From Minisyncoccota bacterium (GTDB taxonomy: Bacteria; Patescibacteriota; Minisyncoccia; Phycocordibacterales; UBA9973): 64,000 bases of DNA. Location: positions 23,446 through 87,445 of the forward strand of contig JBAYHJ010000002.1 of assembly GCA_041666225.1 (NCBI GenBank), read 5' to 3'. The notes under the pieces are model-generated. The model made no database searches. It was given only the letters and a program-made list of their open reading frames with translations, and was not told where the DNA came from. Positions 867 through 51,327 of the stretch are shown piece by piece. Position numbers and translations under genes: made by a program. Positions within the stretch are counted from its first letter, which is position 1; every line of letters starts with the position of its first letter.

Positions 867-3800
867 AAAACAGGAACAATTCAAACAATTAAGAGATTCT
901 CGTTTAGATAATGAGCGTTTATTGGAAGATAAAAAATCGCTTGAATTAAAAAAGGGCGAGATGAACAAAGAGGATTGGGAATTAAAAGCCAGGTCAATAG
1001 AAATTGAAATTCTAAAAACAAGAGGCGATATATATAAACTTGAGGAAACTTTGGGGTTAGATAAAAACGATCCCGAAGTTAAAAAAATAGAAGAAGAAGC
1101 TTTTACTGAAATTAATGAACTTGAAAAAGATTTTGAAAAAGTCATTGTAAGTGAAAGTACTGAAGATAAAGAATTTTTTGAAGAGATAGATGAATTAGCA
1201 AGTTGCATAAATAAGATAACAGATAAGGTTTATCAGAGGGGTTATTCTGTTGAGACACTTGAAAATCTAAGAAATTCTGAAAATATTAATGAAAAAGAAT
1301 TTTATAATGAAATAGAGTTAGATTTTGAAAAATTTAATGGGGACTCAAAAATAAAAAATTTAAAAGAGAAAAATTCAAATTTGATGCTTGACCTTCTGAT
1401 TCTAAAAATAAAAGATGAATATTTTAAAAATTATTTTTTAGTGGATTTTTCTGGTGATGAGAATATTCCACATTCTAAAATAGTTGATATTTTTATTCAT
1501 AATATTCCTAAAAATAAGGACACGAGGTCTTATAAAGATTTAGAGGACTCAGTTAATGATAGATTAACTAAGGAAAAAAGAAATGCACTTTTAAATCTTC
1601 CAGCAGAAGAAGTGCTTGATATTGTTTTAGATGATCCAGAAATATTATCTTCAGATTTAGAAAGAAATTTGTCATCAAAAGTATCAGATTTATGCCAATC
1701 ATATTTAAACGCAAATAATTTAAATGGAGTTAAAAGAATATTGGAGAAAATATTAAAAATTAAAGAGAATAAAGATATTAGTATTACTTCATTTTTACCC
1801 AAAATCAACACCTCACTTAATTTTAATGAGGAAGAAACAATTGCAATATTTTCAGGTGAAATGCCTGAATGGATTTTTGACAGATATTGTGATTCTATAA
1901 TTTGCAGTCCTTTCATTAGTTTGGTTCCTGAGAAATACATAAAAGAAAAATATTTTCATGGAGAAATTATTGTTGTATTTCCACTAACAAAAGAATCTAT
2001 AAAACAAGGTTTAGATAAAAATGGTTTAATTTTTTCAGATTTATCACCAGAAGAAAAAATTATTTGTTTAGAAAAAGGGGAAGATAATATGATTGATATT
2101 TTTTCAGTTGATGATTTAAAACAGATATTAAGTTTTGGAAAATATATTGATATAGATAAAATTCCAAAAAAATATCAGACTGAACTTAAGTATGATATAA
2201 TCGACAATTTATTCAATAATAGAAATTTAGACCATCTTGAGATTTTAAAGAAGGTATCTAAGGAATTAAACTTAAATTTTAAAGATTTATCAGATGAAAA
2301 AAACATTTCTATTTTAAATAAAATAAATTACAGCAGTGATATTGTTTCATTATTTGATCCACAAAATCTTAAAAGATTAATATTAAGAGAGGATTCTGAA
2401 TTTGAGAGTTCATATGGTTTAGAAAATTTGTTAAATATTACAGGATTAACTGTATCAGATTTTTCAGAAGCTAAACAAATCAAAATTTTTTATAAAGTTC
2501 GCTGGAGTGTAAATAAAATAAAAAATATATTTTCAATTGATGATTTACGTAAAATTGTAATAAATAAGGACATAAATCTTGATTTTGATAATATACCAAA
2601 TGAATATATTGATGGTCTAAGTAATGAAATAATCGAAATGCTGAGAAGAAAAGGAGACCTTTCTTTTGAAAAAAATAAAGTGACAAGGGAATGGTTTTTT
2701 GAAAAATTAAAAGAAAGAATAGAAAAAGATGATAATTTCGAAATTGAAAAAGATAGATATAAAAATCTTAAACGAATAAATAGAATTCAAGAATCTTTTT
2801 GGCTTTTAGATAGTCAAGAAAAATTGCCACCTCAAATAATTGAAAAATTTAATATTTTCAAAGAAAAATATGGGAAAAAGGGTGAGGGTTTAATTTCTCT
2901 TTCTATTGTGGCTCATGGGCTTGAAAATATTAATCAAACAGTCATAGAAATCGAAAAAATGGAACAAGTTATTGATTTATACGATAAAGAAAACATTCCA
3001 GAAGGGATGAGGGGTACATATGGTTTTGAATATGAAGTTGGTACAGAGCATGGTAAGTTATACGATGAAGAAAGTATATTAGGGTACGCGATTGAAGCAG
3101 AACTAATTGGAAGATCATCAAATATTAAACGAGGGGGTGGTGGTTCAGGTTCTATTTATGAACACTCAACTACTCCTACCGATAATCCATACATCGTCAT
3201 GGTTGAGATGGACTTACTTCAAAAAGCTAGAATGATTGACCCAAATGCAAAAGAATTTCCAGGTAGTTCGAGAGGGTACCATTTAAACCTCGGAGGAGAA
3301 AATGGTTTAACTTTATCTGAAAATATGTATTTTTTTGAAAATACGATGTATCTGACAGGGTTAAATAGTTTAAAAACAGGAATGGAAGTTAGTTCAATTA
3401 AAAATATACACCAAAAATTATTAGATAAAGTTTTTGAAAAAAAACAGGGTGGGGATAGGGTTGAAATAAAAAGCATGGGATTTGATTGTGTGGAACAATT
3501 TAATCGTGCTATTTTATCTGCTCACAATACTGTGATAGCGGTTCAGTTGGCAGAAAAATATCAACTAAATCCTTCTTTTGAAATATTAGAAAAATTACCT
3601 AATAATATTGAGGATTTTGATTCATTTCTTTTGTCTATTAATGACTTTGAGGAAAAAATATTTGATTCAGAACAAGAAAAGCAAATTGTTTATGCTTGGT
3701 TGAAGTTTAAAAAAGAAACATTTTTAGCAATAAAACAACACAATAACTCATTTGTTCAAAGTGAATTTGAAGGATCATTTTTTAATGAAAAAGGAGAATA

Positions 3801-4323
3801 TGTTGAGACTACTGAGAACATTGATTTGAAGGGGAACAATCAAACTATAAAAGATTTGGGTATTAATTTAAATTCAGGTGAATTTAAAAAAATTTATCAA
3901 ATTCCTGAAGATTGCTTAAATAGCGAAACATACACCAAAGAATTATCTAATTCATTAACTCGCGTGAATAATATATTTATATTTAAAGAACCAGTTTTAT
4001 CAGAAGGTAAATTTAGCGTTAACCCAATAACTAAGCAAAGACAATTAAAACCTGAACAGATAGCTAACGCGTATGCTTTCTTGACTGGAATGAGGGGGGA
4101 GGGTTACATAAAAGATATTCCAGGAAGTCCTTTTGATTCAATTATTGATACTGGGGGTAAAATTAGAGATGGATATTATTATGTTCAGAAGGCCTCAGAA
4201 GAAATGATTACTCATAAATCACAAATAATTTTAAATCGATTTAACAAAGAAATGGAGGAATTATTAACAAACTCAGTCGAAGAAGATGCGAATAAACAGA
4301 AACAATATGAAAGAGCAATATAG
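841..4323 (+). CDS. large hypothetical protein (1160 aa); Glu/Lys-rich coiled-coil N-terminus and an uncharacterised C-terminal region
   Basis: Long uninterrupted ORF. The first ~130 aa are E/K-rich heptad-like. The C-terminal part contains TYGFEYEVGTEHG, IKRGGGGSGSIYEHSTTPTDNPYIVMVEMD and RGYHLNLGGENG. I recognise no family with confidence. Confidence 0.7.
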   Translation: MAIITKMNEKQEQFKQLRDSRLDNERLLEDKKSLELKKGEMNKEDWELKARSIEIEILKTRGDIYKLEETLGLDKNDPEVKKIEEEAFTEINELEKDFEKVIVSESTEDKEFFEEIDELASCINKITDKVYQRGYSVETLENLRNSENINEKEFYNEIELDFEKFNGDSKIKNLKEKNSNLMLDLLILKIKDEYFKNYFLVDFSGDENIPHSKIVDIFIHNIPKNKDTRSYKDLEDSVNDRLTKEKRNALLNLPAEEVLDIVLDDPEILSSDLERNLSSKVSDLCQSYLNANNLNGVKRILEKILKIKENKDISITSFLPKINTSLNFNEEETIAIFSGEMPEWIFDRYCDSIICSPFISLVPEKYIKEKYFHGEIIVVFPLTKESIKQGLDKNGLIFSDLSPEEKIICLEKGEDNMIDIFSVDDLKQILSFGKYIDIDKIPKKYQTELKYDIIDNLFNNRNLDHLEILKKVSKELNLNFKDLSDEKNISILNKINYSSDIVSLFDPQNLKRLILREDSEFESSYGLENLLNITGLTVSDFSEAKQIKIFYKVRWSVNKIKNIFSIDDLRKIVINKDINLDFDNIPNEYIDGLSNEIIEMLRRKGDLSFEKNKVTREWFFEKLKERIEKDDNFEIEKDRYKNLKRINRIQESFWLLDSQEKLPPQIIEKFNIFKEKYGKKGEGLISLSIVAHGLENINQTVIEIEKMEQVIDLYDKENIPEGMRGTYGFEYEVGTEHGKLYDEESILGYAIEAELIGRSSNIKRGGGGSGSIYEHSTTPTDNPYIVMVEMDLLQKARMIDPNAKEFPGSSRGYHLNLGGENGLTLSENMYFFENTMYLTGLNSLKTGMEVSSIKNIHQKLLDKVFEKKQGGDRVEIKSMGFDCVEQFNRAILSAHNTVIAVQLAEKYQLNPSFEILEKLPNNIEDFDSFLLSINDFEEKIFDSEQEKQIVYAWLKFKKETFLAIKQHNNSFVQSEFEGSFFNEKGEYVETTENIDLKGNNQTIKDLGINLNSGEFKKIYQIPEDCLNSETYTKELSNSLTRVNNIFIFKEPVLSEGKFSVNPITKQRQLKPEQIANAYAFLTGMRGEGYIKDIPGSPFDSIIDTGGKIRDGYYYVQKASEEMITHKSQIILNRFNKEMEELLTNSVEEDANKQKQYERAI

Positions 4324-4741
4324 TCAATTTCAAAAAAAACTAGAAGAAATTCCTCAATTAAAACCCGAGGCTCATTTTGTTATAAATGATTCCGCACAGA
4401 AAATTTTAAACAACTCTCCTTTGAACAAAATAGAGCAAGACTCAATTGACGCCATATTTATTGAACTTGAAGAACTTGATAAAGATATTGTTAGTTATTT
4501 AATTAATCTTAAATCAAAAGGAATAATAACAAATGATGAATGTAATTTAATTGCTTCATATTTTACTGCTTCAAAGCAAATAGGTCCAGACAGTGGAGTA
4601 ATTCGGGATGCTTTTTATGGAAAAACAGTTAGTCAAGGTGAGTTTGAAGAATTAATGAAAAAAGTATCTATTCCAGAATATTCTAGCTCAATCATTTTAA
4701 ATGTTTACAAAAAAATCATCGAGAAAAATAATAAAATTTAA
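4286..4741 (+). CDS. hypothetical protein (144-151 aa), overlaps the upstream gene and is probably translationally coupled
   Basis: The ORF overlaps the 3' end of 841..4323 by 17-38 nt in another frame; the alternative start MKEQYSQ is at 4307. No recognisable domain. Confidence 0.5.
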   Translation: MRINRNNMKEQYSQFQKKLEEIPQLKPEAHFVINDSAQKILNNSPLNKIEQDSIDAIFIELEELDKDIVSYLINLKSKGIITNDECNLIASYFTASKQIGPDSGVIRDAFYGKTVSQGEFEELMKKVSIPEYSSSIILNVYKKIIEKNNKI

Positions 4742-4788
4742 TAATATTTTATATTGAAAATATTGACTTTTTCTGGTATATTTAGAAA

Positions 4789-5898
4789 ATGCTTAGTATA
4801 GGAATTGTAGGTTTACCAAATGTTGGAAAATCAACTCTGTTTAACGCTCTTACGAAGAAGGGTGTTGCGGCGGAGAATTATCCTTTCTGCACAATTGATC
4901 CATCTGTGGGTATTGTGCCTGTTCCTGACGAGCGTTTATGGAAACTTTCTGATTTTTCAAAATCAGCTAAAACTATTCCGGCGGTTATTGAATTTGTGGA
5001 TATTGCTGGTTTAGTTAAAGGTGCATCAAAAGGGGAAGGACTAGGGAATAAATTTTTAGCCAATATTCGCGAAGTAGATGCAATTTTAGAAATTGTCAGA
5101 ATTTTTCCACTAAAAAATGATAAAGGGAATGAAATTATTCATATCTATGGAGACATTGATCCACTTCGTGATATTGAAGTTATTAATCTTGAGCTTATCC
5201 TTGCGGACTTGGAAACTGTTGCAAAACGTCGGGTAAATATAAATAAAGATATTAAAAAAAATGATAAAGAAGCAATTATTGAAGATGGAGCTTTGGTAAA
5301 ACTAGAAGTTGCTTTTGAAAAAGCAGAACTTGCAAATACTGTAGAACTTAATGAAAAAGAAATGGAAAAAATAAAAATGTTAAATCTTCTTACTCTTAAG
5401 CCTTTCATTTATGGATTAAATAAACAAGGTGGAATGCAAAATTTAGATGAGATGAATCCTGAAATTTTTAAAGAATTAACTGACTATATTGAAAGTATGG
5501 GTTCACGTTTTGTTGTAATTGATGCTAAAATAGAGGAAGAATTGAAGGACTTTGAGGGGGATGAAAAAGAGATGTTTCGTAAAGAAATGGGTGGTGACGA
5601 TGATGGGATAAATCATCTCATTACTGAAGGATACAAGCTCCTTGGCCTCGATACTTATTTTACCACCGGTCTTGATGAAACAAGGGCTTGGACGATAAAA
5701 AGTGGAAGTACTGCTCCTGTGGCAGGAATGGCAATTCATACAGATTTTAAAGATAAATTTATTCGGGCGGAAGTTGTTTTTTGGAAGGATTTACTTGAAG
5801 CTGGAAGTTACCATGAGGCTAAGGCCAAGGGTAAAGTTAGAACCGAAGGAAAAGAATATATTGTGAAAAATGGAGATGTCGTAGAATTTAAAATTTAA
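4789..5898 (+). CDS. ychF: ribosome-binding ATPase YchF (Obg-family GTPase)
   Basis: MLSIGIVGLPNVGKSTLFNALT has the P-loop, followed by FVDIAGLVKGASKGEGLGNKFLANIREVDAI and the TGS-like C-terminus; 369 aa is the typical length. Confidence 0.9.
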   Translation: MLSIGIVGLPNVGKSTLFNALTKKGVAAENYPFCTIDPSVGIVPVPDERLWKLSDFSKSAKTIPAVIEFVDIAGLVKGASKGEGLGNKFLANIREVDAILEIVRIFPLKNDKGNEIIHIYGDIDPLRDIEVINLELILADLETVAKRRVNINKDIKKNDKEAIIEDGALVKLEVAFEKAELANTVELNEKEMEKIKMLNLLTLKPFIYGLNKQGGMQNLDEMNPEIFKELTDYIESMGSRFVVIDAKIEEELKDFEGDEKEMFRKEMGGDDDGINHLITEGYKLLGLDTYFTTGLDETRAWTIKSGSTAPVAGMAIHTDFKDKFIRAEVVFWKDLLEAGSYHEAKAKGKVRTEGKEYIVKNGDVVEFKI

Positions 5899-5929
5899 CA
5901 CATCTTGTAATAAATTAAAATATCTTTTT

Positions 5930-6505
5930 ATGAAAAACAGTTGGCAAAAAGCAGAAGAGATTTTAAATAAAGATGGGGTAGTTGTACTACCCACTGATAC
6001 TTTATATGGAATAATAGCTAGTGCCTTATCTAAAAAAGCTGTTGAAAAATTGTATAAGATTAAGGGTCGAATTGAAAATAAACCCTTTATTGTATTGATA
6101 AATTCTTATAAGGATTTAAATAAGTTTGGGATAAAAATAGACAGAGAACACTCTGTTTTTTTGCAAAAAATTTGGCCTGGAAAAGTTAGTGTTATTTTCC
6201 CTTGCACATTAGACAAATGGCATTATGTTCATCGTGGAGTAGAATCAATAGCACTTAGAATGATTAGTCCTAAAAACAAAAATTTATTTAATTTGATTAA
6301 TAAAGTAGGCCCACTTGTTGCACCAAGTGCAAATAAGGAAGGTGATAGAGCTGCAGAGGATATATTAGAAGCTAAAAAATATTTTGGAAATGAAGTATCT
6401 CTATATATAAATGGAGGCAACAGGAAATTTAAATCATCAACATTGGTTAAGTTTAAAAATAATAGTTGGGTTGTCTTAAGGCAAGGGGAAGTAATAATTA
6501 AGTAA
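5930..6505 (+). CDS. tsaC: L-threonylcarbamoyladenylate synthase TsaC/YrdC family
   Basis: VVLPTDTLYGIIASA followed by KIKGRIENKPFIVLI matches the Sua5/YciO/YrdC fold signature. Confidence 0.8.
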   Translation: MKNSWQKAEEILNKDGVVVLPTDTLYGIIASALSKKAVEKLYKIKGRIENKPFIVLINSYKDLNKFGIKIDREHSVFLQKIWPGKVSVIFPCTLDKWHYVHRGVESIALRMISPKNKNLFNLINKVGPLVAPSANKEGDRAAEDILEAKKYFGNEVSLYINGGNRKFKSSTLVKFKNNSWVVLRQGEVIIK

Positions 6506-6531
6506 AAAGAGTAGCTACTTGCTACTCTTTT
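6506..6531. terminator. bidirectional intrinsic terminator shared by the convergent tsaC and DUF1003 genes
   Basis: Perfect hairpin AAGAGTAGC-TACTT-GCTACTCTT flanked by A/T runs, lying between and overlapping the two stop codons. Confidence 0.6.
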
Positions 6532-7075
6532 TACTTAATTTAGGTATCTTTTTTATTTTATTTTGTTTTTTAAGTTCTATAACTTCTTCTATTAATTTTC
6601 CAAGGGAATCTTCAATTCTTCTCATTATTTCATCGTCTTTTTTTTGTTCTATTTCCTCAATATCTTCTTCTTCATTAATCTCATCAACATCTTTCTGAAT
6701 CTCATCCACATCTTTTTCGATTTCTTCCACGTCTTCTTGAATCTCATCAACATCTTTCTGAATCTCATCCACGTCTTCTTGAATTTCTCCGACATCACGA
6801 GCCACAGCATGCAATTTTCTTGCTTGGCGATTTACACTCATTTGTATGAAGATAGAAAGGTAAATAGCTTCAAGAGAGACAATTGTTGTTAGAACAAGAA
6901 GAATCTTATCCATAGCTATACCATAAAAATAAAGTAAAAATGCAACGATAAATAACGTCGTATGAATAACCAATGAATTAGTAGAGCCAATCCATCTAGT
7001 TGCTCTAATAGCAATTTTATCTAGACCATCTGCTGTTTTTTTTCTTGAAACTTCCATTAGGTGTTTATTATACAC
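6515..7075 (-). CDS. DUF1003-family membrane protein with an acidic heptad-repeat tail
   Basis: The N-terminal part has two TM helices and the RQ(A/E) motif typical of DUF1003. The C-terminal part is DVDEIQK-type repeats. Confidence 0.65.
   Translation of the reverse strand: MYNKHLMEVSRKKTADGLDKIAIRATRWIGSTNSLVIHTTLFIVAFLLYFYGIAMDKILLVLTTIVSLEAIYLSIFIQMSVNRQARKLHAVARDVGEIQEDVDEIQKDVDEIQEDVEEIEKDVDEIQKDVDEINEEEDIEEIEQKKDDEIMRRIEDSLGKLIEEVIELKKQNKIKKIPKLSKKSSK
6626..6799 (-). repeat. in-frame tandem 21-bp repeats encoding heptads (DVGEIQE / DVDEIQK / DVDEIQE / DVEEIEK / DVDEIQK / DVDEINE)
   Basis: Near-identical 21-nt units are visible on the plus strand (aatctcatcaacatctttctg, aatctcatccacatctttttc and so on) across about 6655-6790. 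Confidence 0.8.
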
Positions 7076-7101
7076 TCTAATTCTGATATAATAAAGTTAT
7101 T

Positions 7102-8112
7102 ATGGAAACATCAACACAAACACACTCATTAACACCAAAGTTTTTCTTTATTTCTCTAGGCGTCATTGTGACTCTCATTACTTCTGTGTCATCATTTTTA
7201 GTTTTATTATTTGAAACCCTGAATAAAAAATTTCCTGATGTTTTAAATGGAAATTATCAATATGGCTATAGTTCGTATAGTTATGATAATATCCGTGCAA
7301 CATTAGCGATTCTTATTATATTTTTCCCCATATTTTTAGTTTTGTCATATTTTTGGAAAAAGTTATCAAAATCAGAATTGGGAGCGAAGGATAATATAAT
7401 ATTTAAATGGATGATCTACTTAGTTATTTTTATTGCTAGTCTTGTTATCGCTATTGATTTAGTAACTCTTGTAAAATATTTTGTTTCCGGAGAGATTACG
7501 AATAGATTTGTGTTTAAGGTTTTAGGCACTGCTATTGTTGCTGGTTTGGCGGGGATTAACTATTTTTATGAATTAAAAAATCACGATAAATTAGAAATTA
7601 AAAGTAGGCTTCCTGTTTTATTGGCGATTAGTTCTTTGGTATTATTTTTGGCTTTGGTCATTTGGAGTTTTAATATTATGGGTAGTCCGAAAGAGCAACG
7701 CGCTTGGCGACTTGACGATAAGAGAGTTACAGATTTACAAAACATTCAATACCAAGTTATTAATTATTGGCAACAAAAGGAAAAATTACCAATTTCTTTA
7801 TCTGAATTATCAAATCCTATGACAGGATATTCCTTGCCTGTTGATCCAGAGTTTGAAAAGGGGAATAAATATGAATATATAGCTATAGATAAGATTAATT
7901 TCGAACTTTGTGCGACTTTTACATCTCCAATTCCTAAGGGATGGCAAGAAGATAGTTATAGAGGAATTATGTATGCAACAAAATCAGATATTGCTGTATC
8001 ATCTGCTCCATATCCAAGCGGTGGTGTTAATGATTCTTGGAGTCATGAATCTGGGAGAACTTGTTTTACTCGTAATATAGATAAGGATATATATCCACCG
8101 TTCAAAAATTAA
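7102..8112 (+). CDS. hypothetical integral membrane protein with a C-terminal soluble domain
   Basis: Several hydrophobic segments occupy the first 200 aa; the hydrophilic C-terminus is W/Y-rich. No confident family assignment. Confidence 0.6.
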   Translation: METSTQTHSLTPKFFFISLGVIVTLITSVSSFLVLLFETLNKKFPDVLNGNYQYGYSSYSYDNIRATLAILIIFFPIFLVLSYFWKKLSKSELGAKDNIIFKWMIYLVIFIASLVIAIDLVTLVKYFVSGEITNRFVFKVLGTAIVAGLAGINYFYELKNHDKLEIKSRLPVLLAISSLVLFLALVIWSFNIMGSPKEQRAWRLDDKRVTDLQNIQYQVINYWQQKEKLPISLSELSNPMTGYSLPVDPEFEKGNKYEYIAIDKINFELCATFTSPIPKGWQEDSYRGIMYATKSDIAVSSAPYPSGGVNDSWSHESGRTCFTRNIDKDIYPPFKN

Positions 8113-8118
8113 AGACAT

Positions 8119-10659
8119 ATGCAAAATTACGATCATAAAAAAATAGAAAAAAAATGGCAAAGTGAATGGGAAAAGAAAGAAATTTATAAAACTTTAAATT
8201 CTGGAAAAGGAAAAAAGATGTATGTTCTTGATATGTTTCCATATCCTTCTGGTGTTGGATTGCATGTCGGACATCCTCGTGGCTATATAGGGAGTGATGT
8301 TTATGCTCGAATGAAGCGCATGCAAGGTTATAACGTACTTCACCCTATGGGTTATGATGCTTTTGGATTGCCTGCTGAACAGTATGCATTAGAGCATAAA
8401 ATTCATCCCAAAAAAGCAGTAGAAGAAAATGTAAAAACTTTTGAACGTCAACTTTCTATTATTGGTCTTTCTTATGATTGGTCACGAAAAGTGAATACTA
8501 CCGATCCCAAATATTATAAATGGACACAATGGATCTTTCTTCAGATTTACAACTCTTGGTTTGATGTGATAAAAAACAAAGCAAGAAGTATAAAAGAGCT
8601 CGAATTAATTTTTGATAAAAGTGGAAATGAAAGAGTCAATGCTGTCTGTAGTAACGACACAGAAATTTTTACTGCAAAAAAATGGAAATTATTTTCTAAA
8701 AAAGAAAAGCAAGATATCCTTATGAAATATCGTCTTGCTTACGAAGGATATAGTGAAGTAAATTGGTGTCAAGAAATGGGAACAGTTTTGGCCAATGATG
8801 AAATAGTAAATGATATAAAAGGCAACTCAATTTCTGAGCGCGGAGGATATCCTGTAGAGAAAAAATTAATGCGTCAATGGTTTATGCGAATTACAGCTTA
8901 TGCAGATAGATTATTGTCTGGATTAGATGAATTGGAGTGGAGTGACCATATAAAAGAAATTCAAAGAAATTGGATAGGTAAATCAGAGGGGAGTGAAATT
9001 AGTTTTAAAGTTCGAGTTACCAAAAAGTTTTCCTCAGGTCCTCGGATGAGGGAGGACGAGGAGCCAGACCATTCAGAAAATCTTTTTGGCAACTCTCACT
9101 TGATAAAAGTATTTACAACTCGGGCAGATACTATATTTGGTGCGACTTATGTTGTGCTTGCACCAGAACATAAAATAATTACAAATTATAAATCACAAAT
9201 TACTAATTGGGAAGAAGTGGAAGAATATATTTCTGGAATTAAAAATAAGACAGATGAAGATCGTACAAAGAATGATAAAGAAAAAACAGGTGTTGAATTA
9301 AAAGGAATAAAAGCCATTAATCCCGCAAACGGAGAAGAAATTCCTATTTGGATTGCTGACTATGTTTTGGCTTCGTATGGAACAGGAGCTATAATGGCCG
9401 TGCCAATGCACGATGAGAGAGATAGAAATTTTGCGACCAAATTTAATTTACCGATAATAGATGAGCCTTTAGTTGATGCAAGTGAAATAACAAGAAAAGT
9501 TGGTGGAAAAATTGTTACTAAATACAAAATGCGAGATGCGATTTTTGCTCGTCAGAGATATTGGGGGGAGCCAATACCACTAAAACATGATAAAGATGGT
9601 ATTATTTTCGAATTAAAAAATAAAGATTTACCTTTAGAGTTACCAAAAGTAAAATCATATTCTTTTACTGGAACTGGGGAATCCCCACTTGCTGGAATAA
9701 AATCATGGGTGAAGGAAGGTTATGAGACAAATACAATGCCAGGATGGGCTGGAAGTTCTTGGTACTTCTTGCGATATATGGATCCTGAAAACAAAAAGGA
9801 GTTTGCTTCTAAAAAAGCTATAAATTATTGGAAAAATGTAGATATGTATGTAGGTGGAGCTGAGCATGCGACTGGTCATTTATTATATTCACGTTTCTGG
9901 AATAATTTTCTTTATGATATGGGTTATGTATCATTCGAAGAACCATTTAAAAGAATGAAAAATATAGGAATGGTTTTAGCTACAGATGGACGCAAAATGA
10001 GTAAGAGGTGGGGAAATGTTATTAACCCAGATGATATTGTGAAAAATTATGGAGCAGATACTCTTCGTGTTTATGAAATGTTCATGGGCCCATTTGAACA
10101 AAGTCTTCCTTGGTCCACAGAAAGTATAATAGGATCTAGGCGCTTTATTGATAGAGTTTTTAGGCTACAAGAAAAGATTAGTGATAAAAAAAGTTCTATT
10201 GAAATAGAGAAAATTCTTCATAAAACTATAAAGAAAGTTAGCGAAGATATCGAAAATTTTGCTTTCAACACAGCTATTTCTTCTATGATGATTTTAGTAA
10301 ACGAATTTGAAAAAACTGATTTTATAAATAAAGATGATTTTAAAAAATTTTTACAAATACTTTCACCATTTGCACCACATATTACAGAAGAGATCTGGCA
10401 AAATCTTGGAGAGAAGAAATCAATTCACAAGAGTTCGTGGCCGAAATGGGACAAGAAGAAAATTATAGATGAAATGATAAAAATTGCTATTCAGGTAAAC
10501 GGAAAAGTTCGAACAGAATTAATAATACCCATAGATATGACAGAACAGAAAATAAAGGATTTAGCCTTAAAAAACGAGAAAATCGTTGTATGGACACAGA
10601 ATAAAGAAATTAAAAAAATTATTTATATACCTCATAGAGTTATAAACATAGTTGTCTAG
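8119..10659 (+). CDS. leuS: leucyl-tRNA synthetase
   Basis: PYPSGVGLHVGHPRGYIGSDVYARMKRMQGYNVLHPMGYDAFGLPAEQYA has the HIGH region; KMSKRWGNV is the KMSKS motif; 846 aa. Confidence 0.95.
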   Translation: MQNYDHKKIEKKWQSEWEKKEIYKTLNSGKGKKMYVLDMFPYPSGVGLHVGHPRGYIGSDVYARMKRMQGYNVLHPMGYDAFGLPAEQYALEHKIHPKKAVEENVKTFERQLSIIGLSYDWSRKVNTTDPKYYKWTQWIFLQIYNSWFDVIKNKARSIKELELIFDKSGNERVNAVCSNDTEIFTAKKWKLFSKKEKQDILMKYRLAYEGYSEVNWCQEMGTVLANDEIVNDIKGNSISERGGYPVEKKLMRQWFMRITAYADRLLSGLDELEWSDHIKEIQRNWIGKSEGSEISFKVRVTKKFSSGPRMREDEEPDHSENLFGNSHLIKVFTTRADTIFGATYVVLAPEHKIITNYKSQITNWEEVEEYISGIKNKTDEDRTKNDKEKTGVELKGIKAINPANGEEIPIWIADYVLASYGTGAIMAVPMHDERDRNFATKFNLPIIDEPLVDASEITRKVGGKIVTKYKMRDAIFARQRYWGEPIPLKHDKDGIIFELKNKDLPLELPKVKSYSFTGTGESPLAGIKSWVKEGYETNTMPGWAGSSWYFLRYMDPENKKEFASKKAINYWKNVDMYVGGAEHATGHLLYSRFWNNFLYDMGYVSFEEPFKRMKNIGMVLATDGRKMSKRWGNVINPDDIVKNYGADTLRVYEMFMGPFEQSLPWSTESIIGSRRFIDRVFRLQEKISDKKSSIEIEKILHKTIKKVSEDIENFAFNTAISSMMILVNEFEKTDFINKDDFKKFLQILSPFAPHITEEIWQNLGEKKSIHKSSWPKWDKKKIIDEMIKIAIQVNGKVRTELIIPIDMTEQKIKDLALKNEKIVVWTQNKEIKKIIYIPHRVINIVV

Positions 10660-18145: not shown

Positions 18146-18221
18146 GCCTAGATAGCTCAGTTGGTAGAGCATTCCCCTGAAGAGGGAAGGGTCCCCAGTT
18201 CAAATCTGGGTCTAGGCACCA
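18146..18221 (+). tRNA. tRNA-Phe (anticodon GAA), CCA encoded
   Basis: GCCTAGATAGCTCAGTTGGTAGAGC...TTCCC-CTGAAGA-GGGAA...CCCAG-TTCAAAT-CTGGG-TCTAGGC-ACCA. Confidence 0.9.
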
Positions 18222-18421
18222 GAATGGAACAAATGAGTTCGAGCAGAGTTATATGCCTATACATACGTATAGATGTTAAATTGGAATATATCCCTTTGAA
18301 TTGGTGCGAAGCTATTGAACCTATACGGTTTATTTGACTTTTATGTATTTTGATTGTAATATATATAAAATTTTCATGTTATTTAATAACATAAATTCCC
18401 CACAAATAAAAACATAAATAA

Positions 18422-19633
18422 ATGAAATTACATGAATTAGATTTTAAAAATCCATTTTATTCGTCTATTTATTGTGAGCGACACGTGAATGATTCAAAAG
18501 GTCGCTTTAATGAGTATTCAGAAGTGAACCCTATCTATGATCCTCAAGGATCTATACCCCAACTACAAGTACCATTTACTTGGATTCAAGAAGAAAATCT
18601 TGAAGTTTACAAAAGTAATCCATCATTAGGACTTTTATTGGATGTTTATAAAAATGGTGGATATAAATTCTTTTGGCACCCTGACACTATTCGTGCAACG
18701 TTTGTTATTAATGGTTATGCATCTATGCAACCAACAAGTTCTACTAGAACTATGCTTGAGATGAACACCATGGAGTATTATGTAAAAACTGATCTAGATA
18801 AAAAACATTTTCGTTTTGTTCGAAGATTAAAAAAAAGTTCAGTAATACATAGTATAGAAATTTGTAATGAACTACATACCTTAGTCTCAAAACTGTCAGC
18901 CGATTCAACGTACAGTTTTTTACCAGAATCTCTTGGTCTTGTGATCATGTACGGTCCTTATAAGGAATCTGGGGTTCTCTTTAGAGAAACAAAACCAGCT
19001 ATTATTTCTAAGGATAACAGAATGATTTTACCTTATCATGCATTATATGCTCTAGATTCAAATGATTTGGAATCAAAACCTTTATTGATTCAATTGTGTG
19101 AAAAAAATTCACCATTAGATCCATTAGGTTTCTTTCTAGAGTATATTGTTGGATATATTCAAGATGCATGGGTATTACTCGTTACTAAACGGGGATTATT
19201 ACCAGAATTACATGGTCAGAACTCTCTAATTGAAATTGATGAAAATTTCTTTCCTAAGAGAATTATTCATCGAGATTTCCAAGGTACTTACAGTGATTCC
19301 GAAATTCGTAAATCTCTTAATTTAAGTGTTTTTAAAAAACATGTTGCAGGAGAAGAAGATGGAACATCTAAAGCATCACAATACAGTCATGTTTATGACG
19401 GGATGATTGGACGATATTTGTTTTCAAGACTCACTAAAACATTTTGTGCTCATTATGAGAAATTTGACTACAAAACTGTTTCCAGTGAAATAGCACGTCG
19501 TTTTAATTTAATCCCTAATAACATAACTGATATGTTTCCGTTAACAACCTATAAATTTGGTAATTCTGCGAAAGAACAAGAGAATAATAATGTGTTTTTA
19601 GTAGATACAAAAGAATTACCAAACTTTCGTTGA
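18422..19633 (+). CDS. hypothetical protein with IucA/IucC-like (NRPS-independent siderophore synthetase-like) motifs; truncated relative to typical members
   Basis: 403 aa. SSTRTM and ELHGQN lie about 158 aa apart, with a Lys 12 residues after the TRT and a HRDFQG ~20 aa after HGQN. This spacing matches the S-x-R-T ... K ... H-x-Q-N ... D catalytic residues I recall for AcsD/IucA-family enzymes. Family assignment is from memory, not a search. Confidence 0.45.
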   Translation: MKLHELDFKNPFYSSIYCERHVNDSKGRFNEYSEVNPIYDPQGSIPQLQVPFTWIQEENLEVYKSNPSLGLLLDVYKNGGYKFFWHPDTIRATFVINGYASMQPTSSTRTMLEMNTMEYYVKTDLDKKHFRFVRRLKKSSVIHSIEICNELHTLVSKLSADSTYSFLPESLGLVIMYGPYKESGVLFRETKPAIISKDNRMILPYHALYALDSNDLESKPLLIQLCEKNSPLDPLGFFLEYIVGYIQDAWVLLVTKRGLLPELHGQNSLIEIDENFFPKRIIHRDFQGTYSDSEIRKSLNLSVFKKHVAGEEDGTSKASQYSHVYDGMIGRYLFSRLTKTFCAHYEKFDYKTVSSEIARRFNLIPNNITDMFPLTTYKFGNSAKEQENNNVFLVDTKELPNFR

Positions 19634-19666
19634 ATTTATTTGTTTTTAAATGTAAAATAAGAACAT

Positions 19667-20446
19667 ATGAAAGAAATATTAAAAACATCTGATTTCGGAA
19701 CAGGGTTAACAGAATTGTATATCTATGAGTCTACAAGTAAGACAGAAAGGGTTATTTTACTTCTAAAAGGTATATATGGTTACCATTTCCAATTAGATGA
19801 TTTTCAAACTAGCCTATTTGGTCTTAAATGGGATCAATCATTTATTCGCTACTTTCTTCCTCATGCTCATGTAATTTGTGTAAATACTTCTAGGCTTGAT
19901 GACTATAACCAAAATGTTTTCTCTCAAAGACGAGATGCATTTGAAGGGAAAAATTATCATCAAGAAGTGAATGATGTTGAAATTGCTTTTAATAGAGCTC
20001 TTCAATTACTTTCTGAAAGAGGTTTTAAAAATCTCCAGATTCATTTAATAGGAAAATCCTTTGGTGGAACAGTTTTTTTGGGGATGCCGGAAATAGTTCA
20101 AAAGTCTATTTCAATTTCTATGTTTGGTAGTGGTTGTGGTAAAAGAGAAGACTCAAAAAGTTCACTATTAAGAACATTACCAAACGAAGAGATTTTACTT
20201 AAAACCATAAATGACTATCGAGGATTGTTTTCTTTTTATCATGGAGAGCTTGATGAAATTGTACCTATTGAATCACAAGAAAAGATTGTGAAAGCAAGTG
20301 GTGCGAAATTAACAAGTTACATTACAATGAAAGGAGTTGATCATGAGTTTGAAAAAATGTATGGTGAAGAAAACTTAGAACCTGGAACCTTGTTAAGAAA
20401 AATGTTACTAAATAATATTTTGTTTAGTGATAATATAAAATTATAA
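19667..20446 (+). CDS. alpha/beta-fold hydrolase (dienelactone-hydrolase/esterase-like)
   Basis: Nucleophile elbow IHLIGKSFGGTVF (GxSxG) and later GELDEIVP and GVDHEF, consistent with a Ser-Asp-His triad order. Confidence 0.65.
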   Translation: MKEILKTSDFGTGLTELYIYESTSKTERVILLLKGIYGYHFQLDDFQTSLFGLKWDQSFIRYFLPHAHVICVNTSRLDDYNQNVFSQRRDAFEGKNYHQEVNDVEIAFNRALQLLSERGFKNLQIHLIGKSFGGTVFLGMPEIVQKSISISMFGSGCGKREDSKSSLLRTLPNEEILLKTINDYRGLFSFYHGELDEIVPIESQEKIVKASGAKLTSYITMKGVDHEFEKMYGEENLEPGTLLRKMLLNNILFSDNIKL

Positions 20447-47164: not shown

Positions 47165-48334
47165 CTAATTTTTATTCTTTCTATTCTCTCTTTGAATCAA
47201 GTATTTTTTATTTTTTAATTTATCAGGCATTAAATCTTTATTTGTGTACTTCTCATACCCTTTTCCATATCCTAGATCCTTCATAAGCTCTGTTGACGGA
47301 TTTCTTAGTTCTAGAGGTATTGGAAGATTCCCATATTTAGAGACGTCTCCTTGAGCCATTTTAAACGCCTCATAAGCACTTCTATCTTTTTTGGCTTGTG
47401 ATAAATAAACCACCCCATGAGATAAATTTATTCCACACTCAGGATAACCAATTGTTTCTACAGCTCTAAATACTGCATTTGCTACAACTAATGCAGTTGG
47501 TTGTGCGATTCCAATATCTTCTGAAGCAAAAATTACCATTCGACGTGCAATAAATTTAGGATCTTCACCAGCTTCAATCATCCTTGACAAATAATATAAA
47601 GCGGGGTCTGGTTGTGAGGCTCTCATACTCTTAATAAATGCACTTATAAGATTGTAGTGCTCATCACCTTTTTTATCATAACGAAGAAATTTTGACTGAA
47701 GAGTATTTTTAAAATTTTCAATACTTATTTCTTTATAAAGCGACATGGTGTTTTCAATCATTGCAATAGCTTGGCGAGCATCACCGCCTGACATTCCGAT
47801 TAGCCAATCGATTGCATCTTTTTTTATTTTACATCCAGTTCTTTTGATAATCTTTTTCATGTCATCATTTGAAAATTCTTCTAAGACAAAAACGCGACAA
47901 CGTGAAAGTAGCGCTGGAATAACTTCAAAGCTTGGATTCTCGGTTGTAGCTCCAATGAGAATCAATCTTCCACTTTCTACATATGGTAAAAGAAAATCTT
48001 GCTGGGCTTTATTAAAGCGGTGTATTTCATCAAGAAAAAGAATTTTAGGACCTAAAAGTTCTCCAGTTCCTTTAATTCCAGTATCCACGATCTGCCTTAT
48101 ATCATCTTTGCCAGCAGAAACTGCAGATAATTCATGATAATCAGCGTTTAAGGATTTAGCATATATTCTTGCCAGTGTTGTTTTTCCAACTCCCGGAGGA
48201 CCCCAAAGAATAAAAGAAAAGATGTGTTTCTGGTTAATTGCCATAAAAAGAGGCTTATTGGGGCCTACGAGGTGCTCTTGGCCTATAAATTGGGATAGAT
48301 TCTCGGGTCTGATTTTAGATGCTAATGGTTCCAT
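47165..48334 (-). CDS. rarA: replication-associated recombination protein A (RarA/MgsA AAA+ ATPase)
   Basis: [24 protein letters not shown] ... [18 protein letters not shown] (Walker A) ... [23 protein letters not shown]; 389 aa. Confidence 0.9.
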
Positions 48335-50253: not shown

Positions 50254-51327
50254 TTAGTTATTAACTGTAGTATTTACGGTTGTACTACTTTCGACTTTTA
50301 TAGTTTTATCTTCTGTTTTAGTTTCGTTTTCAACTTCAACACTACTTTCTACTTCATCAACCTTGGGAATTTGTATTAATACGGTTGTTGCTTCTTTTAC
50401 GGCAATGTGAGCTTTTTTAACTTGTTCGCGTAAAGCTTTTATATCTTTTGTGAAAGAGTCACGAAGATTTTTCATTGCAATCTTAAGAGTTACTTCATCT
50501 GTAATAGTTCCTATCTCGTAAGTCTTTTTGGATTGTATGTCTATTGCTTCTCTTGTGGATGCTATAACTGTCTTAGCGGCTTCTATTTTTAGTTTAATAG
50601 CAGTTACATCTAAACCTTTAGCTTCTGCTTTTGTTGTTCGAGATTCTATACTAACAAGGACATTTTCAATTTGATCTGTTTTAACAGAAAGACTTTCTGT
50701 TATTTTTAAATTTAATCCCAATATAATATCAACAATTTTTTCTGCTGAGATTTTTTTATTCTCATCTTTTATTTTATTAAGATTTTCTTTAAAAGTAACT
50801 TTTGTTTCTTCTATTTTTTGTTTAGCTTGTTCTCTGTTTAATTCAATTTTAGCTTTAAATTCTTCGCGTTTAATTTTTACTAATTCAACCATTTGTTCAA
50901 GTTGGTTTTTATATACCTCTTTTTCATTTTCTAATTCATCTTTTAGAGTTTTGACTTCACCCTTGAATTCATCACGTTTAATCTTAATATCTTCTCTATT
51001 ACCTTTTAAATCACCTCTTATTTCTTTAAATTTATTTTTAATTTCTTCACCCTTTGAATCATCATCATCATCTTCTTTTAAATCTGAATCATCTTTCTCG
51101 TCATCAGGACAGACAAATTCACAATCAGGACCTGTTCTTCCAACTGAGGTACCATCTGAGCACAATTTTGCATCCATTGTGCAAGCAACAACTGACGCAT
51201 CTTCTTCTATTTCTATGCCATCTTTAGCATAAGCAACAAAACCAAACATTAATGATAAAACTAAAACAATTGATGACACGCTAATTTTTATTTTTTTACT
51301 CATTTTTTGAAGATAGACCATAGCCAT
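50254..51327 (-). CDS. hypothetical secreted coiled-coil protein with a Cys-rich N-terminal segment and an acidic linker
   Basis: Signal-like start (MSKKIKISVSSIVLVLSLMFGFVAYA, probably at 51303), a four-Cys segment, a DDDDD run, then long K/E heptad-rich sequence. Confidence 0.55.
   Translation of the reverse strand: MAMVYLQKMSKKIKISVSSIVLVLSLMFGFVAYAKDGIEIEEDASVVACTMDAKLCSDGTSVGRTGPDCEFVCPDDEKDDSDLKEDDDDDSKGEEIKNKFKEIRGDLKGNREDIKIKRDEFKGEVKTLKDELENEKEVYKNQLEQMVELVKIKREEFKAKIELNREQAKQKIEETKVTFKENLNKIKDENKKISAEKIVDIILGLNLKITESLSVKTDQIENVLVSIESRTTKAEAKGLDVTAIKLKIEAAKTVIASTREAIDIQSKKTYEIGTITDEVTLKIAMKNLRDSFTKDIKALREQVKKAHIAVKEATTVLIQIPKVDEVESSVEVENETKTEDKTIKVESSTTVNTTVNN

Follow-up and report, generated by a model that had tools for sequence, protein, structure and literature searches.

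Synthetases of the NIS type (siderophore synthesis independent of nonribosomal peptide synthetases) are known almost only as siderophore enzymes of ~600 amino acids (aa), and genome-mining tools equate a match to the IucA/IucC family with “siderophore.” The canonical proteins (~550-650 aa) have a thumb-finger-palm architecture, in which the thumb and finger domains build the dimer interface (PMC9356276). The residues that touch Mg2+ and the phosphates of ATP, which every NIS type conserves, are in DesD Ser275, Arg277, Lys291, Arg303, Arg370, His440, Glu442, Asn443 and Asp460, with Glu442 being Gln in AcsD (residue set of PMC9356276); the general base of the acyl-transfer step in AcsD is E442 (PMC3323832). 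Here we describe a pair of adjacent genes from a 64,000-nucleotide stretch of a Minisyncoccota genome (contig JBAYHJ010000002.1, positions 23,446 to 87,445; hereafter the window) that encode a 403-aa protein, which we call the ligase or mini-NIS, and a serine hydrolase. The ligase represents a thumb-less, ~400-aa branch of the NIS superfamily that retains a complete catalytic core and is found in organisms of minimal metabolism without a siderophore context.

Membership of the superfamily is already captured by automated annotation. Our literature search found nothing on short NIS-like enzymes in bacteria of the candidate phyla radiation (CPR) or on an operon combining chr genes, DUF1259 and IucA, and it returned no paper about the thumb-less architecture, about how large or how widely distributed the family is, or about an obligate hydrolase partner in Patescibacteria or non-siderophore contexts. 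An identical 403-aa protein is on record at NCBI as Candidatus Paceibacterota, in agreement with the CPR-like nature that a first-pass annotation of the window had ascribed to the organism.

A thumb-less branch of the NIS synthetase superfamily

Homology, fold and active-site conservation place the ligase in the NIS synthetase (IucA/IucC) superfamily, as the first-pass annotation had supposed from motifs alone. The Pfam family IucA_IucC (PF04183) matches the protein with 27.8 bits (gathering cut-off 25, E = 2.4e-6), the match covering no more than positions 127-238 of the profile's 239, its second half, and the best score among its relatives is 41.6 bits. FhuF (PF06276), which describes the palm domain, scores 23.0 bits against the window protein, below its cut-off of 25.2, and passes it in relatives such as P0249 (39.1 bits) and L030 (36.8 bits). 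NCBIfam yields weak matches to SbnF and SbnC only, over the same core. A single-sequence phmmer search of the PDB with the ligase gave no match; NIS structures were reached only by a family profile, built from a 39-sequence alignment of the ligase family that extends down to 23% identity (A1). The best match of this profile is AsbB, the type C enzyme of petrobactin synthesis (E = 1.7e-14, query 109-291 against AsbB 282-461); AcsD, the type A achromobactin synthetase (PDB 2W02/3FFE; E = 4.6e-9 over AcsD 239-470), is also matched, as are SbnC (staphyloferrin B, type B), IucA, DfoC, DesD, AlcC and NcdF. Types A, B and C score alike, and the family therefore has no clear type. An AlphaFold2 model computed on A1 is compact and confident (pLDDT 95.4, pTM 0.93) and has the NIS-synthetase fold.

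The departure from the canonical architecture lies at the N terminus. In an hhalign comparison, ligase residues 28-291 align with residues 204-511 of a canonical 647-aa NIS synthetase (locus L056; IucA_IucC at 184-424, FhuF at 458-618), so that the N-terminal ~180-200 aa forming the thumb are absent and the finger and palm are compacted. No separate thumb-like open reading frame (ORF) lies upstream of the ligase in the window. The same domain is missing relative to AsbB and SbnC, and relative to AcsD, which has 620 aa and is 12% identical.

The first-pass annotation had called the protein truncated, which is apt for the lost thumb; the gene itself is not degraded and belongs to an old and widespread family of ~400-aa proteins. 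A word-indexed search returned 116 homologues of about this length, mainly from Patescibacteria, and an exhaustive search of 1.84 billion representatives with a hidden Markov model (HMM) returned 2,022 matches at E<=1e-3, of which 1,178 reach E<=1e-10 and 536 reach E<=1e-30; the last figure counts representative clusters at 50% identity, of which the family thus has at least 536. Nearly all of the best 150 HMM matches are ~400 aa long and align end to end. The family extends over Patescibacteria, DPANN archaea, Chlamydiae and Alphaproteobacteria. Both genes are under purifying selection and are intact rather than remnants: in a comparison with L008 (Ca. Nomurabacteria), which is the nearest genome at 84% aa identity, the ligase has a dN/dS of 0.12 and the hydrolase one of 0.09. 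Homologues of the Bdellovibrionota type (L052 5848-7293, L054 5761-7197) are somewhat different, having 478-481 aa, an N-terminal extension resembling a signal peptide, and no C-terminal [FWY]-R; such an extension is odd for an ATP-dependent enzyme unless the protein is delivered into prey.

A complete catalytic core with family-specific residues

The nine-residue DesD set maps, by spacing and by HMMER alignments to AcsD and AsbB, onto ligase S107, R109, K122, R134, R188, H264, Q266, N267 and D285 (Table 1). All nine equivalents are invariant in A1, and they are invariant or at least 90% conserved in A6, a 23-sequence cross-phylum alignment that includes Patescibacteria, DPANN archaea, Chlamydiae, Alphaproteobacteria, Bdellovibrionota and others and extends down to 19% identity. 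Taken residue by residue, S107, R109, T110, K122, H264, Q266, N267, R284 and D285 are invariant in A1, and all but T110 are so in A6; R134 is invariant in A1 and at least 90% conserved in A6, and E262 reaches at least 90% in both. The counterparts in AcsD are S279/R281/T282, K293, R305, H444, Q446, N447 and D464, with E262 matching the general base E442. The S-T-R-T, Lys, ELHGQN and HRD elements recognized in the first-pass annotation occur at the spacing it gave (K122 lies 12 residues past T110, E262 155 past S107, and H283 21 past E262), and with their conservation among homologues they are no product of chance. The outcomes that were to refute its reading, a failed profile match with an unrelated fold or motif residues that vary among homologues, did not occur. 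Because E262 is retained, the conserved chemistry would appear to cover the condensation step as well as nucleotide binding.

Other features belong to the ligase family itself. We suspect that S322, Y325 and D326, which lie on a long palm helix (residues 317-344 of the model), and the C-terminal Arg have a role in substrate recognition. The S322-x-x-Y325-D326 motif may be equivalent to AcsD R501 or DesD D497; the acceptor-recognition residues of AcsD, R501 and K563, have no demonstrably conserved counterparts in the ligase. The position of the adenine-sandwiching His of the canonical finger (DesD His153) is not covered by the profile alignment, which starts at ligase residue 28, and the family motif E19-R20-[Y/H/F]21-V-N23 may stand in for the canonical finger motif GHPxHP.

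Table 1. Features of the ligase-hydrolase locus, in window coordinates
Feature	Position	Strand	Basis
tRNA-Phe(GAA)	18146..18221	+	ARAGORN; Rfam tRNA 71 bits
Leader, 200 nt, AT-rich	18222..18421	+	One weak promoter-like match
Ligase gene (mini-NIS, thumb-less NIS-synthetase family), 403 aa	18422..19633	+	ORF listing
Ligase S107-T108-R109-T110, gamma/beta-phosphate-binding motif (DesD Ser275/Arg277/Thr278)	18740..18751	+	A1, A6; roles PMC9356276
Ligase K122 to R134, phosphate-binding Lys and ATP-binding-loop Arg (DesD Lys291/Arg303, AcsD K293/R305)	18785..18823	+	A1, A6
Ligase R188, gamma-phosphate Arg (DesD Arg370)	18983..18985	+	Invariant in A1 and A6; role PMC9356276
Ligase E262-L-H264-G-Q266-N267: general-base Glu, adenine/alpha-phosphate His, Mg2+ ligands	19205..19222	+	A1, A6; aligned to AcsD MEPHLQN
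Ligase R284-D285 of H283-R284-D285, Mg2+-binding Asp (DesD Asp460, AcsD Asp464)	19271..19276	+	Invariant in A1 and A6; aligned to AcsD LLRDF
Ligase S322-x-x-Y325-D326, long palm helix, candidate substrate-recognition motif	19385..19399	+	At least 90% in all A6 clades; model
Ligase C-terminal Arg403, ...P-x-[FWY]-R-COOH	19628..19630	+	Invariant in A1; 20/23 in A6
Intergenic spacer, 33 nt	19634..19666	+	No terminator
Hydrolase gene (alpha/beta-hydrolase-fold serine hydrolase, the ligase's conserved partner), 259 aa	19667..20446	+	ORF listing
Hydrolase nucleophile elbow G129-K-S131-F-G133	20051-20065	+	Hydrolase alignment A3
Hydrolase D196	20252-20254	+	Hydrolase alignment A3
Hydrolase H226	20342-20344	+	Hydrolase alignment A3
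GH3-family acyl-acid amido synthetase gene, 506 aa	48342..49862	-	Pfam GH3 domains N, M and C

A conserved serine hydrolase partner in Patescibacteria

The second protein has the alpha/beta hydrolase fold, and the GxSxG hydrolase that had been called downstream of the ligase proves to carry a conserved Ser-Asp-His triad: S131, D196 and H226 are invariant among 14 hydrolase homologues (alignment A3) and are kept in the distant partners from L064 and L059. It falls in no named subfamily, and public records label it hypothetical. No Pfam family exceeds its gathering threshold (PGAP1 15.4 bits, cut-off 24.3; Hydrolase_4 15.0 bits, cut-off 27), NCBIfam returns nothing, and a relative from L016 passes Hydrolase_4 with 31.9 bits. 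Its closest known systems are generic esterases and acyl-peptidases of the fold, including the dienelactone-hydrolase-like 7QJN, PET46, monoacylglycerol lipases, feruloyl esterases and acylaminoacyl peptidases, from which it differs in having invariant motifs of its own (NTSR, F-x-GK-x-[FY]-x-QE and GSGCG...TKPLLSTLP).

All ORFs from 57 loci were clustered. The cluster that contains the hydrolase (c1) lies directly beside the ligase in 14 of the 14 loci of the window's clade, whose ligases are 48-100% identical. In a Minisyncoccota clade at 47% identity the hydrolase is directly upstream of the ligase (hhalign 3.7e-25), and in an abundant clade at 40% identity the order is ligase, c8, hydrolase. 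The c8 protein (~300 aa; L004 7236-8189, L019 7243-8190, L020/L021 7212-8117, L059 6233-7138) has no match in Pfam, PADLOC, PHROG or the PDB sequences; many of its residues are invariant, including a G-x-N-C-x-G motif, and no His is. In two members of the window's clade (L003 6715-7110, L013 7999-8403) the gene immediately after the hydrolase encodes a 4HBT-family thioesterase of 131-134 aa, which hints at an acyl-thioester step feeding the pathway in some lineages.

Two rare long proteins consist of the mini-NIS fused to an LD-carboxypeptidase of the Peptidase_S66 family or to a domain with the beta-lactamase/DD-peptidase fold; in L057, the 232-aa gene that follows the S66 fusion proved to be something other than the c1 hydrolase. 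With three unrelated serine-hydrolase folds coupled to the ligase, we propose that ligase and hydrolase may share an amide- or ester-linked, possibly peptide-like, compound. A similar logic, in which an ATP-dependent enzyme that forms amides is linked genetically, and at times by fusion, to a hydrolase that could cut bonds of that kind, may be seen in glutathionylspermidine synthetase/amidase and in cyanophycin synthetase/cyanophycinase, where the likeness would extend to the logic only, the ATP-grasp and Mur-ligase folds of those couples being unrelated to the NIS fold.

A Pfam census of 118 neighbors from 37 loci (NUDIX 5, AAA_17 4, HisKA 3, 4HBT thioesterase 2, and others) contains no gene for a siderophore receptor, importer, exporter or precursor enzyme, with the exception of the major facilitator superfamily (MFS) transporter found in the chromate-resistance operon of a distant alphaproteobacterial clade. 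The pair is not a canonical siderophore cluster, and it has none of the gene context of achromobactin, petrobactin or staphyloferrin B synthesis.

Distant members of the family keep other company. The alphaproteobacterial operon, which we read by ORF listing, Pfam and RefSeq annotation in these high-GC loci, comprises a chrB-like gene, the chromate efflux gene chrA, DUF1259, the mini-NIS and the MFS transporter, and is found on Methylocystis plasmids and in Gluconacetobacter (L066, NZ_CP107559.1, 3838-9406; L067, NZ_CP143317.1, 3840-9415; L038 3600-8112), flanked by CusA/CzcA efflux genes of the resistance-nodulation-division (RND) type or by MerR/MerT. One of these records carries a siderophore-biosynthesis Gene Ontology term in RefSeq that is probably unwarranted. 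In DPANN loci (L037, L040, L042; ~3700-8350) a co-directional cluster consists of a 417-aa fusion of a xylose-isomerase-like TIM barrel with a methyltransferase, an AAA_17 P-loop kinase (VakA-like in PADLOC), a NUDIX protein (PADLOC PDC-S07, 3e-21), the mini-NIS and a 368-aa Peptidase_U32. In L035/L036 (5088-7146) and L032 (6001-8084) the gene of a distant mini-NIS of ~35% identity is overlapped or immediately bordered by that of a retron-type reverse transcriptase (RT; PADLOC RT_VI 2.2e-22, Pfam RVT_1); this pair occurs in both gene orders and in metagenome-assembled genomes (MAGs) labelled either DPANN or Patescibacteria, and it could represent a retron-like system whose effector is NIS-like. 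Elsewhere among the distant clades the partners are TrmB together with a P-loop kinase, an HD protein or a DUF3307 protein.

Proposed function and alternative explanations

On this basis we consider it probable that an active, thumb-less NIS-type adenylating ligase and a dedicated serine hydrolase act together on a small cytoplasmic metabolite. The two genes would form a vertically inherited, cytoplasmic and bicistronic enzyme module. According to the mechanism that we propose from residue conservation and the published AcsD and DesD mechanisms, the ligase would hold ATP-Mg2+ through S107/R109/T110, K122, R134, R188, H264, Q266/N267 and D285 and adenylate a carboxylate substrate, giving acyl-AMP and pyrophosphate; with E262 as the general base, the acyl group would then pass to an amine or hydroxyl nucleophile to yield an amide or ester. 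The hydrolase, with its Ser131-Asp196-His226 triad, would work in the same pathway and either free one of the ligase's substrates from a scavenged precursor or cleave the ligase product, in which case the two would be a synthetase/amidase couple. Since the serine hydrolases that replace it in the fusions are of the peptidase type, the shared substrate could be peptide-like, for example derived from amino acids or muropeptides, an idea that is speculative and in our estimation rather doubtful.

Several observations weigh against our interpretation. The ligase would have to be active without the thumb, which together with the finger makes up the canonical dimer interface, and the adenine-stacking His of the canonical finger has no confidently aligned counterpart in the ligase. 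The substrates of the ligase are not readable from its sequence. Not every clade pairs the ligase with the hydrolase, since a P-loop kinase, NUDIX, HD, Peptidase_U32, retron-type RT or chrBA-DUF1259-MFS genes take its place elsewhere, and each of the two fusions is known from one short contig and might be an assembly or frameshift artifact. Finally, the metal-resistance operon with its MFS transporter favors a metallophore-related role for the alphaproteobacterial clade.

That last point leads to the alternative that the ligase is a minimal metallophore or siderophore synthetase, joining a common polycarboxylate such as citrate to an amine to make a small chelator, with the hydrolase acting like siderophore esterases in releasing the metal or recycling the ligand. 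The ligase does fall within the NIS superfamily, its catalytic and candidate substrate-pocket residues are alike across clades in a way that suggests a shared chemistry, and the Methylocystis and Gluconacetobacter operons have MerR, MerT and RND genes for heavy-metal efflux as neighbors. A single NIS synthetase is reported to suffice for rhizoferrin biosynthesis (PMC7857480). However, neither the window nor the 37 loci have transporter, receptor, precursor-enzyme or Fur-type regulatory genes beside the pair, the conserved partner in Patescibacteria is a cytoplasmic hydrolase rather than an exporter, and the homologues from Proteobacteria share just ~28% identity with the window ligase. The tricarboxylic acid cycle, which is the source of citrate, is moreover generally absent in CPR bacteria. 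A metallophore function is thus without support in the patescibacterial context, and we judge it unlikely overall. Less likely again, and by a good distance, the protein would ligate no carboxylate and be a nucleotidyltransferase of kinase-like or AMPylating type, or else a defense or toxin effector, that acts on a nucleotide or macromolecule and is antagonized by the hydrolase. NUDIX proteins, P-loop kinases and HD phosphohydrolases do recur as neighbors in other clades, the retron-type RT shares an operon with distant members, and restriction-modification and Mrr genes flank L003, but the ligase retains every residue of the NIS-specific set, the general base for acyl transfer among them, and the window locus is a housekeeping one that is syntenic over a long evolutionary distance. 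The idea of a defense system was dropped in view of the lack of any PADLOC or PHROG match to either protein. The sole outcome of a search for carriage by phages was a pair of partial matches, in phage-labelled records, to NIS genes of the canonical staphylococcal kind.

It is more improbable still that the ligase is a decayed or non-catalytic remnant, for instance a ferric-siderophore reductase or binding protein resembling FhuF. Its length, ~200 aa below that of canonical enzymes, the near-threshold FhuF match, and the NCBI name “IucA/IucC family C-terminal-domain containing protein” on some relatives could all be read in this way. Proteins of the FhuF type are without the ATP-binding half and have a C-terminal 2Fe-2S Cys motif. 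The ligase appears to share their palm subdomain but, unlike them, retains the ATP/Mg2+ residue set, and none of its four cysteines (C18, C148, C226, C342) is conserved or part of a C-terminal cluster of the FhuF type. Across five phylum-level groups the residues for ATP, Mg2+ and the general base vary little or not at all, and the low dN/dS and the confident model also argue against decay.

Returning to an active ligase and its hydrolase, we tentatively raise the broader possibility, which we hold with less than even confidence, that thumb-less NIS synthetases are an ancient and previously unrecognized group of stand-alone ATP-dependent amide or ester ligases that function outside siderophore biosynthesis. 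They might be overrepresented in lineages that depend on a host and have reduced genomes (CPR, DPANN, Chlamydiae), be coupled in Patescibacteria to the hydrolase for make-and-break or trim-and-religate chemistry on a peptide-like or scavenged metabolite, and have been recruited as a scaffold into chromate/metal-resistance and retron-type RT operons. IucA/IucC matches of this kind should not be labelled siderophore biosynthesis. The retention of the ligase-hydrolase pair under strong selection in CPR bacteria provides a concrete piece of their “dark” metabolism, and a minimal NIS scaffold has possible uses in enzymology and amide-bond biocatalysis. Because the cultured hosts Methylocystis, Gluconacetobacter and Microvirga hold homologues with the same active-site residues, the function of the family should be accessible to genetics and metabolomics.

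Organization and inheritance of the locus

The 33-nt spacer between the two genes is without a terminator, which fits a bicistronic unit. In the leader, a promoter scan gave a single weak sigma70-like match (TTGACT-17-TAATAT, 18334-18362), and matches were fewer than in shuffled sequences. A riboswitch or other leader element had been entertained and was dropped: Rfam found no riboswitch or cis-regulatory RNA at the locus, the tRNAs being its only matches, and the leader is unstructured (fold z-score -0.78). Upstream of tRNA-Phe are tRNA-Gly(CCC) and tRNA-Arg(CCT) with small ORFs interleaved, and the flanks of the pair in the window consist by Pfam of housekeeping genes (LepA, DivIC, glutaredoxin (Grx), Hsp20, PrsW and ValRS).

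The position of the pair, 200 nt downstream of the 3' end of tRNA-Phe, had led the first-pass annotation to suggest an insertion hotspot, in which case the pair would be a recently acquired islet. Patchy distribution of the family (a pattern-limited scan that covered 185,579 species genomes gave 49 loci) would be in keeping with this explanation, as would the sister lineage L059, where the cassette is enclosed by diverged copies of gmk and of the 3' end of lepA, a sign that it can be acquired laterally. The locus itself speaks strongly against it. GC content is flat at ~0.30 across the region, neither side of the pair has an att-like repeat of the 3' end of tRNA-Phe, and no integrase or mobility gene lies near it. 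A Lloydbacteria MAG (L011, 52% protein identity) has the same order, c51-LepA-DivIC-Grx...ligase-hydrolase...Hsp20-PrsW-ValRS, with tRNA-Arg and tRNA-Phe on the other side of the pair, downstream of it, and the linkage to lepA extends to the 40%-identity clade, in which LepA is directly upstream of the ligase. Twelve of 19 related loci lack any tRNA within 6 kb, and tRNA-Phe is found in one only. The tests of GC content, att repeats, tRNA adjacency and synteny effectively refute an island at the tRNA, which we regard as scarcely credible; tRNA-Phe is a mere upstream neighbor that has no functional tie to the pair and whose adjacency is not kept in related loci.

The tRNA-Gly(CCC)/tRNA-Arg(CCT)/tRNA-Phe(GAA) trio, interleaved with a glutaredoxin gene and a conserved 98-aa membrane-like ORF, is kept between the window genome (17245-18221) and L011 (4150-8958) but is rearranged around the ligase-hydrolase pair. 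A second recurrent context, in L008, L010 and L017, is a two-component system (c49-HisK). In L059 (2251-10805), which represents the abundant P0086 lineage of 335 member sequences, a diverged duplicate of the 3' end of lepA (300 nt; 80% identical in nt, 90% in aa) lies on one side of the ligase-c8-hydrolase cassette and a partial copy of gmk (73-77%) on the other, an arrangement that looks like the scar of a lateral acquisition by recombination through flanking housekeeping genes; lepA is there divided into two ORFs by a DUF6994 gene.

A second candidate amide synthetase in the window

The GH3 gene that had been noted near 48.3 kb is a member of the GH3 family of acyl-acid amido synthetases, with matches to the N (1.6e-46), M (1.9e-17) and C (5.2e-23) domains (Table 1). 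It adjoins an AAA+ ATPase of the MgsA/RarA type (47165-48334) and an unannotatable ORF of 357 aa (50254-51327), and a GH3 enzyme is unusual for a CPR genome.

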